This document shows, in pieces, positions 29,860-33,736 of a stretch of DNA of 64,000 bases (the first letter of the stretch is position 1; every line of letters starts with the position of its first letter). This stretch comes from an uncultured Actinomycetes bacterium. GTDB lineage: Bacteria > Actinomycetota > Thermoleophilia > UBA2241. The notes under the pieces were generated by a model that searched no databases, was not told the DNA's origin, and saw nothing but the letters and a program-made list of their open reading frames with translations. The stretch is taken from positions 19,185 to 83,184 of the forward strand of contig CAVYCN010000014.1 in the NCBI GenBank assembly GCA_963767005.1. Reading direction: 5' to 3'. A program made the translations under genes and the position numbers.

Positions 29860-30645
29860 ATGGCGGAGTGGCGGTTCCGCGACGGCGGCGGTTGCTATGC
29901 GGGCAGTGAGGCGATCGAGCGCGCCCTCGAGGCCGATGGACGAAGGACCCTGACTCACGGCAGCCTGCTGCTCGAGCTCAGTCACGAGGACAGGCCGCGG
30001 CGGCAGCCGCCAGTGGCGCTCGAGCGGCGCCTGACCCTGGCGGTCACGGCGCTGGACTGGGCCGGTGTGCGGGTGGTGGGGGAGGGGCCCGCCGCCTGGC
30101 GGAGCGACCCCATCCCGCTGCTCGGCCACAAGAAGCGGTCGCGCCGACCCCAGCGAGTGAACGACGTGCTGCTGGGGGTCGCCGGCCGGAGCTTCTTCGC
30201 CACCGTGCACGACGAGCTGCATCGTCGCCAGGACGGCGGTCAGATGACGACGCGTCCCCTTGCCGCACCCGTGACACACGAGATCGTCGCTCCGGCCGCG
30301 GAGCCCGTCGTCGAGATCCGCGTGCGGCGGGCCGCGCCGGTCGTCGAGACGGTCGAGCCGGCCGTGCGGCGGGCCGCGACGGTCGTCGAGACGGTCGTCG
30401 AGGCATTCGTTCCGCCGGTCGCCGCGCCGGTCGTCGAGGCGCCCCGGTCGGCCGCGACCGTGCTCGCAGTGCGCTGCAAGTCGTGTGGCGCGCCCTTCCA
30501 GACGCCGGTCCAGTTCGACGAGGAGAGCCTGCGCACGGTGGAGCTGCCGACCCGCGCGTACCGCTGTCCGCGCTGTCGTCGCACCGAAGAGTACGGGCGC
30601 GACGACCACACGCTGTCGGCCTACCCGCTGTCGGTCGAGGCCTGA
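29860..30645 (+). CDS. Hypothetical protein with C-terminal zinc ribbon
   Basis: CKSC...CPRC after a V/E/P/A-rich repeated linker. Confidence 0.6.
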   Translation: MAEWRFRDGGGCYAGSEAIERALEADGRRTLTHGSLLLELSHEDRPRRQPPVALERRLTLAVTALDWAGVRVVGEGPAAWRSDPIPLLGHKKRSRRPQRVNDVLLGVAGRSFFATVHDELHRRQDGGQMTTRPLAAPVTHEIVAPAAEPVVEIRVRRAAPVVETVEPAVRRAATVVETVVEAFVPPVAAPVVEAPRSAATVLAVRCKSCGAPFQTPVQFDEESLRTVELPTRAYRCPRCRRTEEYGRDDHTLSAYPLSVEA

Positions 30646-30685: not shown

Positions 30686-32995
30686 TCACCTGCCGCGCTT
30701 CGACAGCCAGGTCTCCTTGGTGACGAGGCCGTCGCTGAAGGCGAGCACGCGGTTGCGGCCGGCCCGCTTGGCCGCGTACATCGCCCAGTCGGCCTTGTCG
30801 AGGAGCTCGTCCTTGGCGGAGGCGTCGTCGGGGAAGGTCGCCACGCCGACGCTCACCGACAGCCTCCGACCGCCCGTCTCGCAGGACCGTTCGACGTCGG
30901 CGCGGATGCGCTCGGCGGCCTTGAGGGCGCCGTCGGTGTCAGTGTCGACCAGCACCAGGACCAGCTCCTCGCCGCCGTAGCGGGCGGCCAGGTCGACGCG
31001 CCGGCCGACCGCTTCGATCACCCGGGCGACGCGGGTGAGCGCCTCGTCGCCGGCCTTGTGACCCCAGGTGTCGTTGTAGACCTTGAACTGGTCGCAGTCG
31101 CAGAACAGCAGCGACAGACGGGTCTTCTGGCGGCGGGCGCGCTCGATCTCTTCTTCGAGCCGTTCGTGCAGGTAGCGGTGGTTGTAGAGGCCGGTGAGGC
31201 CGTCGGTGATGGCCTCGACCTCGGCCCGGCTGAAGCGGATGGCGGCGGCGCGGAGCATGGCGGTCAGCGGATGGCTGCGCTCGACCTGTCGCGACCAGTC
31301 CGCGGCGGCGACGGCCGGGATGTCGACGTTGAGCGCGCCGACCGCGCGGCCGTCGCGGTCGCGCAGGGGCACCATGCCCGAGACCCACACGCCGAAGTCG
31401 TCGGCCGTGAGGATGTTCGAGATCATCTCCTCGCCGGAGAACACGCGGACGAGCTCGTCCTCGGCCAGCCAGGGGTCGCCGCAGTGCGACACGTCGCTCG
31501 TGGCCTCGCCCGTGTCGAGCACCGTGATGCAGCCGTCGGGTGTCATGGCGAAGCTCGTGATGAAGCGCACCGGCGCGTGGGTGTCGCGAAAGGCGCGCAG
31601 CGTATCGACCATCTCGCGGTACTCGGGCCGCTCCTCGTCGGCGCGGCTGCGTAGCAGGGTGTGCCGGGCGGGGTCGATCAGGCGGGCGGCCTGGGCGGCG
31701 AGCTCGGCGGCCTGGTTGCGCCGGCCGCGGAGCTGGCGCAGCACGCGGCGGAACGCCTCGACCATCTCGGGGTCGAACTGCGTGCCGGCGCAGCGCCGCA
31801 GCTCGGCGAGGCACTGGCGATAGGACAGGGCACGGCGGTAGGGCCGCCGGCACGACATCGCGTCGTAGCAGTCGACCACGCACATCGCCCGGGCCACGAG
31901 CGGGATCGCCGCGCCGGCGAGGTGATCGGGGTATCCCGAGCCGTCGAAGCGCTCGTGGTGGTGGCGCACGCCGGCGACGAGCTCGTCGTCGAACAGCGGC
32001 CGCACGATCTCGGCCGAGATGCCGGGGTGCTGGCGCATGAGCTCCCACTCCTCGGAGGTCAGCGGACCGGCCTTGAGCAGCACGCGGTCGGAGACGCCGA
32101 TCTTGCCGATGTCGTGGCAGAAGGCGGCGTCCTGCAGGGCGGCGAGGCGCTCCTCGGGCCAACCCAGCTCCTGGCCGAGCATCGTCATGTAGGCGGCGAC
32201 GCGGCCGGCGTGACCGAGCGTGTAGTAGTCCTTGGCCGACAGCGCCGACGAGAGCGCCCGCAGGTTGGCCAGGTGCAGGCGCTTGACCTCGTCGTAGAGC
32301 TGGGCGTGCTCGATCGCCAGGGCGACGAGGCGGGCGACGGCCTCGCCCGTGGCGAGCTCGTCGGCGGTGAAGCGGCGCTCGACTCGGTCGAGCACGGTGA
32401 CGAGGCCGATCATCTTCTCGTGGGCGATCAGCGGCAAGTCGACCTGGCTGTGCATGCCGTAGCTCGCCATGCTGTCGCGTTCCGCGCGACCGAGGAGCGG
32501 GTCGTCGAGGCTCGCGGTGGGGATGGGGCGCCGCATCTGGATGGTGCGCAGCTTGCTCGGCCACTCGGCCAGCGCCAGGCGCTGGCCGAGCCAGGTCGCA
32601 TCGACGGCGCCGTCGGTCACCGAGGCGATACAGAGCAGGTGGTCGTCGCCGTCGAGCCGGTAGATGTTGCAATCGGGCACGGCGAGCGCCGTGGACAGGC
32701 GCCGCGCGGCCGACACCAGGACCTCCGGGAGCTCGAGGCTCGAGGCGAGCTCGACACTGGTCTCGAACAGCAGACGGTAGAGGCGAGGATCGTTCGCCAC
32801 CGGCTCCAGGGCAGCGTCCGCGGGGAGCGCGGCGTCGAGGTCGTGGCGGTCGAACCGGCGCTGGCCGGTGGGCGTGCGGCGGCTGGGGATACGGCCCTCG
32901 TCGGCCCAGCGCCGCACGGTGGACGCACTCACGCCGAGCAGGTCAGCAGCCTGCTGTACGCGCAGGGGCCGTCGGGTGTCGAGACTCGCCCTCAT
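30686..32995 (-). CDS. MerR/Xis-type HTH + GAF + HD-GYP + Cache-like + GGDEF c-di-GMP enzyme
   Basis: AADLLGVSASTVRRWADEGRI..RTPTGQRRF; GAF; HDIGK...HHERFDGSGYP; DGLTGLYN...RRVDLAARYGGEEL. Confidence 0.88.
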   Translation of the reverse strand: MRASLDTRRPLRVQQAADLLGVSASTVRRWADEGRIPSRRTPTGQRRFDRHDLDAALPADAALEPVANDPRLYRLLFETSVELASSLELPEVLVSAARRLSTALAVPDCNIYRLDGDDHLLCIASVTDGAVDATWLGQRLALAEWPSKLRTIQMRRPIPTASLDDPLLGRAERDSMASYGMHSQVDLPLIAHEKMIGLVTVLDRVERRFTADELATGEAVARLVALAIEHAQLYDEVKRLHLANLRALSSALSAKDYYTLGHAGRVAAYMTMLGQELGWPEERLAALQDAAFCHDIGKIGVSDRVLLKAGPLTSEEWELMRQHPGISAEIVRPLFDDELVAGVRHHHERFDGSGYPDHLAGAAIPLVARAMCVVDCYDAMSCRRPYRRALSYRQCLAELRRCAGTQFDPEMVEAFRRVLRQLRGRRNQAAELAAQAARLIDPARHTLLRSRADEERPEYREMVDTLRAFRDTHAPVRFITSFAMTPDGCITVLDTGEATSDVSHCGDPWLAEDELVRVFSGEEMISNILTADDFGVWVSGMVPLRDRDGRAVGALNVDIPAVAAADWSRQVERSHPLTAMLRAAAIRFSRAEVEAITDGLTGLYNHRYLHERLEEEIERARRQKTRLSLLFCDCDQFKVYNDTWGHKAGDEALTRVARVIEAVGRRVDLAARYGGEELVLVLVDTDTDGALKAAERIRADVERSCETGGRRLSVSVGVATFPDDASAKDELLDKADWAMYAAKRAGRNRVLAFSDGLVTKETWLSKRGR

Positions 32996-33076
32996 CCACG
33001 GAGAGGTATCGGCTCGTCACCCTCTGTTCTTGACCACTCCTGTCAGGGTCGTAGGCCCGAGACCGACGTGTCTCCG

Positions 33077-33736
33077 TCAGACGTACGACCGCACCGCGCG
33101 CCAGAGGCCGCCGGGCCGGAAGTGAAGGTAGGTCGTGTGCTCGAGCACGAGCCGGTCGTCGCCCTGGAAGACGCCCGGCACGTGGCCGCGGTGCAGGCGG
33201 ATCGACGCGTAATGCTCCGGCGCCACCGACGTCGCCCGGCGGTGGACCTCGTTGCCCTGCCACAGCTCAGGGCCATCGGGTCGGGCGAAGAGGATCAGGT
33301 TGCCGTAGCGGCCGTGCTCCGCGCCCAGGTCGTAGTAGCTGAGCAACCCGAGCCCGGCGTAGCGCGGGAAGGTGTCCACGAGCTCGGCTTCGAGCTCGAA
33401 GAGCGCCGTGTGGTCGACGCCCGTGCGGAGCTGGCCGAAGAAGCCCACGAAGCTGGCGTCGCGGGCGACCGCGAGTGCGTCCCAGTCGGGCACGACGAGA
33501 TATTGGCGGCGCGACTCCTCGTCGCTGCGCCCGGGCAGGGCGATCGTGCCGTCGGCCACCCAGCGCCGCACGATCGCGCGCTCCCGGGCGAGCATCGTCG
33601 CCAGGACGGCGAGGTCGGCCCGCGTGGCGCCTACGCCCGCGAAACTGTGGCCGCGGGCGGCGTCGCGCGGCCCGTAGCGCACGATCTCGGAGCCCATCGT
33701 GCCGCTTGCGCTGTCGGCCATCGGACGCTGCTTCAT
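33077..33736 (-). CDS. Hypothetical protein (possible dimeric alpha+beta barrel fold)
   Basis: FVGFFGQ...LLSYY...YGNLILF...W...VHRRA...HYASIRLH. Confidence 0.7.
   Translation of the reverse strand: MKQRPMADSASGTMGSEIVRYGPRDAARGHSFAGVGATRADLAVLATMLARERAIVRRWVADGTIALPGRSDEESRRQYLVVPDWDALAVARDASFVGFFGQLRTGVDHTALFELEAELVDTFPRYAGLGLLSYYDLGAEHGRYGNLILFARPDGPELWQGNEVHRRATSVAPEHYASIRLHRGHVPGVFQGDDRLVLEHTTYLHFRPGGLWRAVRSYV

Follow-up and report, generated by a model that had tools for sequence, protein, structure and literature searches.

A predicted DNA-binding HD-GYP/GGDEF protein with a membrane-free Cache domain and a candidate operator on its WhiG-type promoter in Thermoleophilia

The window analysed here is a 64,000-nucleotide stretch of contig CAVYCN010000014.1 from an uncultured Actinomycetes bacterium of the class Thermoleophilia. 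Its reverse strand carries a gene for a protein, P0001, in which a helix-turn-helix (HTH) head is joined to predicted domains for both degradation and synthesis of cyclic di-GMP (c-di-GMP). A preliminary description of the window had proposed the domain order HTH-GAF-HD-GYP-Cache-like-GGDEF, which the open reading frame (ORF), the Pfam matches, and the structure model confirm. The features of the locus are listed below (aa, amino acids).

30686..32995, minus strand: gene of the HTH-GAF-HD-GYP-Cache-GGDEF protein P0001 (769 aa, ATG start)
32825..32965, minus strand: MerR/BldC-like winged HTH (aa 11–57), from Pfam HTH_17 and MerR, matches to BldC chains, and conserved contacts
32312..32731, minus strand: GAF domain (aa 89–228; Pfam GAF, E 1e-10)
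31766..32257, minus strand: predicted HD-GYP phosphodiesterase domain (aa 247–410), with Tyr replacing the third-metal Glu and an RxYR substrate motif
31310..31723, minus strand: predicted single Cache-fold domain, no membrane helices (aa 425–562), from the model, fold matches, and tree
31208..31297, minus strand: predicted soluble helix from Cache into GGDEF (aa 567–596), from the model (low-to-medium confidence) and the alignment of relatives
30749..31213, minus strand: predicted GGDEF diguanylate cyclase domain (aa 595–749) with GGEEL and an RxxD I-site, from Pfam and motifs
33006..33033, minus strand: predicted WhiG (sigma-28) promoter, from the WhiG consensus of PMC8325347 and a 2026 preprint
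33026..33045, minus strand: candidate operator of about 20 bp on the −35 box, from family conservation and matrix searches

Pfam models cover P0001 at residues 11–55 (HTH_17, E 8e-13), 13–48 (MerR), 89–228 (GAF), 247–410 (HD_5, E 5e-30), and 595–749 (GGDEF, E 1.5e-47), and none matches residues 425–592. The full-length model, based on 94 aligned relatives, has a mean predicted local distance difference test score (pLDDT) of 84.7. In this model, the HTH is joined through a low-confidence linker (residues 59–67), a continuous helix (409–437) leads from the end of HD-GYP into the opening helix of the middle domain, and a less confident helix (567–596), which aligns with the second membrane helix of membrane-flanked relatives, enters the GGDEF domain. 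A dimer prediction for residues 252–750 scored 0.01. As had been claimed, P0001 has no membrane helix: the highest 19-residue Kyte-Doolittle mean is 1.54, and it falls within the HD-GYP domain. Hidden membrane helices are ruled out by hydropathy together with the hydrophilic flanks of the Cache domain. Mean identity to P0001 in 120 close relatives is 85% for HD-GYP, 75% for GGDEF, 68% for the HTH, 62% for the middle domain, 54% for GAF, and 10% for the HTH-GAF linker.

The fusion is not an assembly accident, since a search of 5292 candidates with the middle segment gave 182 proteins, with the same Pfam set in most of the 120 listed; its recurrence in relatives rules out an assembly or annotation artefact. 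The window's genome has seven matches to the segment, and six of these are long HD-GYP-middle-GGDEF ORFs with one to several GAF domains. The middle segment is matched in 58 of 301 genomes of the class: in 49/55 of the window's family, in 7/55 of a second family, with one weak match among 52 genomes of a third, and with no match in any other sampled family. Among 79 fetched genome records, 78 bear the label Actinomycetota, mostly Thermoleophilia. The family is a multi-copy one of a single Thermoleophilia lineage.

Every motif quoted in the preliminary description (HDIGK, HHERFDGSGYP, RRVD, and GGEEL) and the quoted middle segment are present in the translation. The HD-GYP domain, described there as intact-looking, and the GGDEF domain have complete catalytic motifs that are near-invariant in the family. 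Residue conservation was counted over 114–120 close-family rows; 98–100% of these retain the HD-GYP metal and substrate motifs, together with the active site and I-site of GGDEF. In HD-GYP, residues H262, H294-D295, H323, H346-H347-E348, GYP, and D378 are found in 99–100% of the 114–120 rows, and R384 and R387 of the guanine-binding motif RxY(K/R) in 118/120 each. PmGH of Persephonella marina (PDB 4MCW) resembles P0001 in having a GAF domain followed by HD-GYP, and aligns with it over 193 residues (E 6e-33) with the HD, HHE, GYP, and RxY(K/R) motifs in register; it differs in lacking HTH, Cache, and GGDEF domains and in its Glu185, which corresponds to Tyr258 in P0001 and to Tyr in 113/114 rows, placing the family outside the trinuclear subfamily. 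Such a replacement of Glu185 marks the two-metal HD-GYP subfamily, whose reaction usually, though not always, ends at pGpG (10.1101/2021.11.05.467447). Therefore, the domain is likely a c-di-GMP phosphodiesterase with two metals and pGpG as the product.

The GGDEF domain of P0001 matches TIGR00254 with 170 bits. GGEE is kept in 114–116 of 116 rows, D633 and N641 in 116/117, and R665 and D668 in all rows that have a residue there, while the last letter of GGEE(L/F) is Leu in P0001 and Phe in 112/116 rows. Judged by these motifs, P0001 would have both c-di-GMP activities. It is unlikely that a single activity, most probably the phosphodiesterase, matters in vivo, with GGDEF serving mainly to bind c-di-GMP or proteins: 98–100% of close-family rows keep the residues of its active site and those for metal and substrate. 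Still, only one half works in many tandem cyclase/phosphodiesterase proteins (PMC5052742), the Streptomyces phosphodiesterase RmdB binds WhiG via its GGDEF domain (PMC13232838), and HD-GYP is the best conserved domain of the family; in distant members, a simple pattern finds GG[DE]E[FL] in 43/55 and the I-site in 45/55.

The middle segment, earlier likened to Cache sensors, models as a single Cache/PDC domain (pLDDT 84) consisting of a long N-terminal helix and a PAS-like core. Foldseek gave seven matches at E<=0.001, every one of them a Cache/PDC sensor, headed by 8PY0 (a formate sCache) and the sensor of CitA. In a wide structure search, the best match is DctB (Z 13.1, rmsd 3.1, 136 residues), rows 1–47 carry titles of extracytoplasmic sensor domains, and the first cytoplasmic PAS or GAF row has rank 48 (Z 7.3). 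An ESM Atlas search, which serves as a lead only, gave a best score of 0.88 for unnamed clusters and 0.80–0.81 for sCache clusters. At the sequence level, no Pfam Cache model matches P0001, the best being sCache_3_2 (E 0.01, in 4 of 50 alignment members), and a PDB sequence search with the Cache alignment gave no significant match (best E 0.02–0.04, to an IclR C-terminal domain and the CitA sensor). The domain shares the long first helix and PAS-like sheet of single Cache sensors (the CitA/DcuS/DctB folds and 8PY0), and differs from them in the missing Pfam match, in soluble helices standing for both membrane helices, and in its position between two enzyme domains of opposite activity.

A profile of 50 segments retrieved 6403 representatives. 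In those of the best 150 that lie outside the family, the domain follows or lies between hydrophobic helices and precedes HAMP, GGDEF, kinase, or class III cyclase domains. Such membrane-flanked relatives align to P0001 across the entire Cache domain, whose flanks are hydrophilic in 67/67 HD-GYP-fused rows. A quick unrooted tree of 138 segments, with partial matches excluded, has a split (SH-aLRT 99) between 68 membrane-free HD-GYP-fused rows with nine fragments and 53 membrane-associated rows with eight tandem repeats. All 11 loci fetched for the membrane form lie in other Actinomycetota, and the membrane-free form was found in two families. As the membrane form spans many outputs and other Actinomycetota, while the free form was seen in these two families, the domain most likely descended from membrane-flanked sensors. 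Hence, of the internalised sensor proposed earlier, the Cache fold without membrane helices and its probable origin stand, whereas a cytoplasmic Cache domain as such has precedents, namely YkuI_C and Diacid_rec (PMC4822843).

Whether the domain still senses a ligand we rate about even. In 17 single-Cache receptors with membrane flanks, 28 positions are conserved at 80% or more, and six of these 28 are replaced or vary across the 68 rows of the membrane-free form: in P0001 numbering and with the relatives' letters, these are Tyr480, Met482, Phe491, His504, Ser539, and Gly556 (82–100% in the 17, which are the most query-like receptors and no fair sample). This loss, together with an identity lower than that of both enzyme domains, favours a role without ligand sensing, as a rigid helical spacer or dimer joint coupling HD-GYP and GGDEF, which is compatible with the other readings and falls just short of an even prospect. 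On the other hand, the domain is present in every member examined, is better conserved than GAF, and has conserved polar positions of its own, the membrane-free clade keeping Thr481 (91%), Asp494 (93%), Asn527 (74%), and Trp537 (97%).

The same Cache family also occurs in repeat proteins, either as up to five tandem copies behind one N-terminal hydrophobic helix (P0121, P0172, P0237) or as chains of helix-Cache-helix units in proteins of 950–1400 aa; other repeat proteins are P0126, P0138, P0165, P0170, P0179, and about 20 more. Pfam detected no output domain in the few scanned.

At the other end of P0001, the HTH matches the BldC chains 6amk and 6ama at E 6–7e-4. It resembles Streptomyces BldC (PMC5859096) in its MerR-like winged fold and in the Thr/Arg/Trp and wing Arg-Arg contacts: of the BldC contact residues T27, R30, W31, R47, and R48, the counterparts T26 (99/100 rows), R29 (101/101), W30 (100/101), R46 (103/103), and R47 (98/103) are kept. 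BldC differs in being a stand-alone protein of 68 residues; the P0001 head scores 44.2 bits with the BldC family model NF033787 (NCBIfam), below the cut-off of 77, has Gln at the position of BldC His46, and lacks the dimer salt bridge E16-R22. The sites of BldC and CarH are 9–11-bp repeats, and those of CarH overlap the −35 box (PMC5859096, PMC9304148). CarH provides an example of a MerR-type head repressing from repeats over this box, and differs from P0001 in sensing light via B12 and having no enzyme domain (PMC9304148).

HTHs of the same kind are found in HTH-GAF proteins of 335–376 aa with no enzyme domain and with TTGAC-type boxes upstream (G000:C19 4122–5129, C15 24871–26001, C2 564195–565298, and C2 666613–667734). 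The C19 and C15 copies are near-identical, one of them having a shifted C-terminus.

Upstream of the P0001 gene, a −35 element TCAAG (33033–33029) is separated by N15 from a −10 element GCCGATAC (33013–33006), which ends 10 nt 5' of the ATG. This agrees with the WhiG regulon pattern T(A/C)AA-N16-GCCGATAA within 200 bp of the start (PMC8325347; 10.64898/2026.01.14.699351), and both WhiG and RsiG are encoded in the genome. Genome-wide, the strict promoter pattern occurs 16 times with spacer 16, four times with spacer 15, and 0–1 times with each of 12 other spacers. WhiG-type promoters are present at a fixed distance in 28/33 and 9/10 HTH-bearing family loci, compared with 101/3300 shuffles. The Rfam search returned two tRNAs only and no match at the promoter. 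The genome has a WhiG above the TIGR02479 cut-off, one single-motif RsiG, eight prepilin-type motifs, and no flagellin match with PF00669; WhiG-type sites precede two of its pilin genes. In Rubrobacter, the RsiG-WhiG switch drives pilus genes and several diguanylate cyclase and phosphodiesterase genes, and low c-di-GMP has been shown for relatives to release WhiG from RsiG (PMC8325347). The window's genome resembles such systems in its single-motif RsiG, its WhiG, and WhiG-type promoters before pilin and c-di-GMP enzyme genes; the published accounts of these systems, as far as covered, describe neither a target enzyme with a DNA-binding domain nor an operator on the promoters. The P0001 gene is likely transcribed by WhiG, as its promoter motif suggests.

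On the −35 box lies the candidate operator, with a family consensus of TGGnAGAnTTGG-TCAAGTT and a left hexamer CAGGAG in this gene. In 37 promoters, 12 bases to the left and four to the right of the −35 box are conserved, while positions farther upstream and in the middle of the spacer are at background level. A first matrix, built from the close subfamily and used with a threshold of zero, recovered 27/31 close subfamily members (leave-one-out) and 14/19 distant HTH members, and scored above zero in 0/12 members with no or a decayed HTH (hand-picked as those with a WhiG-type promoter found) and at 0/19 other WhiG-type sites of the genome. A 24-column matrix (leave-one-out) found the site in 66/73 HTH-bearing upstream regions and in 14/730 shuffles. 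In 13 of these 66 regions there is no WhiG −10 box, and the site overlies a TAGAAT-like hexamer.

In a held-out test with this matrix fixed, 159 new loci were fetched, of which 103 were excluded: 50 duplicated loci already used, 33 were truncated, and 20 had their HTH in a different frame. Among 54 held-out loci with an HTH, the site is present in 48/49 with Gln or His in the wing and in 0/5 with Glu; the single held-out HTH-less member with a WhiG promoter is also without it. Over all loci, including the training ones, the site precedes 70/72 Gln-wing, 65/67 His-wing, and 0/11 Glu-wing genes. The Glu-wing clade sits within the site-bearing part of the family, carries other residues at positions 42 and 45 of the wing, and keeps the WhiG −10 box. 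It has its own dyad GAAGT-N7-ACTTC on the −35 position, with 13/16 columns conserved in 9–11 of 11 sequences vs. 4–8 in the upstream flank. A search of 89 genomes matched this variant of the site five times, each time upstream of a Glu-wing gene; the genes had apparently been met before, and the result shows only that no other place carries the dyad. Loss of DNA binding in this clade, considered by analogy with BldC H46E, was dropped because the clade carries its own conserved site. Thus, a different conserved site occupies the same place, and the site appears to track the type of HTH. We consider it likely, from this co-variation, that the HTH of P0001 binds the 20-bp site on its own −35 box; the DNA-binding role proposed in the preliminary description has gained a candidate target, by correlation of sequences only.

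A number of observations weigh against this assignment and against the autorepression discussed below. Four of 139 Gln/His-wing members fall below the threshold. A 17-mer pattern of the site gives 32 matches in 61 genomes, compared with 21 for the reversed control, so only the match locations and not the raw count are telling: of 30 matches fetched, 23 lie 47–50 nt before a family gene, and the other seven have no −10 box. The symmetry of the site is ambiguous, direct repeats with an offset of 9–10 scoring 11.1 and 10.8, and the dyad 9.8. Family members are related, non-independent sequences, and the Glu-wing switch is one event; an independent-pairs test, which used an earlier coding with five site-bearing members scored negative, was underpowered (three pairs on well-supported branches, sign test p 0.5). 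As the promoter adjoins the HTH, an N-terminal domain swap would remove both, and this linkage alone explains members with a seven-transmembrane (7TM) domain in place of the HTH. The looser WhiG pattern is far less enriched (55 occurrences at spacer 16 vs. 5–39), the BldC salt bridge and His46 are not kept, and repression is preferred over activation from geometry alone.

Some of these points suit another explanation, which we consider doubtful: that P0001 does not read the site, which would serve another regulator or be a second, housekeeping promoter of the extended −10 type, co-inherited with the HTH as a block, the HTH having other or no specific targets. Indeed, the left half of the site resembles TG-n-TAnnnT, with conserved purines at the expected start of such a promoter, which likewise counts against binding by the HTH. 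Among 14 members without a WhiG −10 box, TAnnnT is found in seven and nAnnnT in all 14; the genome carries other stand-alone and GAF-fused HTHs of the same type, and the independent-pairs test lacked power. However, TAnnnT is present in only 15/122 WhiG-type members, P0001 itself having CAGGAG, and the columns to the right of the hexamer are conserved with or without a WhiG promoter. Moreover, the Glu-wing clade and the decayed-HTH members keep the 5' end of the gene, while their site is changed or lost, and of the 30 matches fetched for the 17-mer, none belongs to any other gene with a WhiG −10 box.

In a wider regulon scan, the four best genome matches of the matrix are the four intact-HTH paralogues, a circular result as these belong to the training set, and 30 more matches exceed 13 bits. 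Three thioredoxin-like genes match the site letters by chance. The possibility that the site is a relic reading frame was rejected: an amphipathic peptide can be read from it, but neither the frame nor its openness is kept before family genes.

Several loci with unusual upstream regions were observed. In L068, L066, L035, and L039 (G000:C10 92414–97789), HisKA_7TM and PAS domains replace the HTH (checked with Pfam for L068 and L039), and the WhiG-type promoter is kept with no operator-like site. A subfamily of 2200–2300 aa (L047, L128, L129, L135, and L143–L145) has the operator-like site with no WhiG −10 box, and a conserved inverted repeat GCAGG...CCTGC farther upstream. L184 is a Gln-wing member without the site, on a contig in a bin labelled Alphaproteobacteria, which may reflect a misbinned contig or a transfer.

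Taken together, these data are best explained by P0001 being a PdeL-like autoregulating dual c-di-GMP enzyme in an RsiG-WhiG loop, most likely a self-repressor; we hold this reading to be evenly poised between right and wrong. At low c-di-GMP, WhiG would be freed from RsiG, both genes being present in the genome, and would transcribe the P0001 gene together with type IV pilus genes, as their promoter motifs suggest. P0001, probably a dimer, would cut c-di-GMP to pGpG at its two-metal HD-GYP site and make c-di-GMP at its product-inhibited GGDEF site. The balance of the two activities would be set by GAF and the membrane-derived Cache domain, the latter placed by the model in line between the final helix of HD-GYP and the GGDEF-entry helix. 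Finally, a pair of HTHs on the operator would block sigma binding, closing a negative loop that could be tuned, as in PdeL, by the nucleotide or sensor state. Repression is suggested because the site overlies the −35 box, as in CarH, and persists in a second promoter geometry.

Binding at the same site might instead activate the WhiG promoter, making the loop a switch and no damper. Such positive autoregulation is known for PdeL (PMC5052742), and BldC is able to activate as well as repress (PMC6428758). Many site-bearing members have a −10 box one or two letters off the consensus. Activator-dependent promoters often have off-consensus −10 boxes. We nevertheless regard activation as unlikely, as the site has its centre at the start of the −35 box, runs through it, and persists in the 13 members without a WhiG −10 box; a repressor would fit both geometries and an activator would not.

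A broader, lineage-wide reading would make the paralogues c-di-GMP homeostats, each making and breaking c-di-GMP, with the membrane-derived Cache domain flipping the activities and nucleotide occupancy gating the HTH on a co-evolving operator at its own WhiG promoter, i.e., an HD-GYP trigger enzyme wired into the RsiG-WhiG switch of type IV pili. We put this forward tentatively and think it improbable in its entirety.

The nearest functional parallel is PdeL (YahA) of E. coli, in which an N-terminal HTH is likewise fused to an active c-di-GMP phosphodiesterase and which binds its own promoter region (PMC5052742). As described there, PdeL differs in its LuxR-type HTH and EAL domain, in having no cyclase or sensor domains, and in binding far upstream and activating; P0001 has a MerR/BldC-like head, HD-GYP with GGDEF, GAF, and Cache domains, and a site over the −35 box. 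The PdeL review treats trigger enzymes of the HD-GYP kind as no more than a possibility in the part consulted (PMC5052742), and the main text of an HD-GYP architecture survey has no match for DNA-binding, HTH, or Cache. Our literature searches, which covered mostly listings and abstracts, gave no paper on the P0001 architecture or operator; a family member may be among the targets tabulated in the supplements to PMC8325347 and the 2026 WhiG preprint. The architecture is apparently undescribed in full and yet common inside its own lineage. Every part has a precedent, namely in PdeL, PmGH, YkuI_C, and the WhiG-driven cyclase and phosphodiesterase genes of Rubrobacter; what appears to be new is the full combination, and a candidate operator over a WhiG promoter tracking the fused HTH.

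If correct, the proposed scheme would offer, after PdeL, another structural way of building a trigger enzyme that binds DNA, with HD-GYP and a cyclase in one chain, and would show promoter-level tuning of the c-di-GMP-RsiG-WhiG loop proposed for early-branching Actinomycetota. With the predicted 20-bp site and the natural HTH/site variant, two oligonucleotides and a domain of 60 residues would suffice to test DNA binding. The membrane-free Cache clade beside close membrane-bound relatives offers what may be a clean case of an outside sensor reused in the cell, and draws attention to a Cache family with about 6400 representatives and poor coverage by Pfam models.

The gene has no operon partner, as its neighbourhood is conserved only beside the closest orthologues. 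Upstream lies a 219-aa ORF (33077–33736, minus strand) with no Pfam or NCBIfam match, which is absent beside the closest orthologue in G226, where a GyrI-like gene further up is retained. The convergent 261-aa ORF (29860–30645, plus strand) ends in a zinc-ribbon-like CxxC...CxxC and is kept only beside the closest orthologue. Lastly, the seventh match to the middle segment in the window's genome is an ORF that ends early. A family paralogue at G000:C4 518038–519492 has a frame that stops just past the Cache domain, and a second piece of HD-GYP lies in a different frame, indicating either a broken gene or an assembly error.

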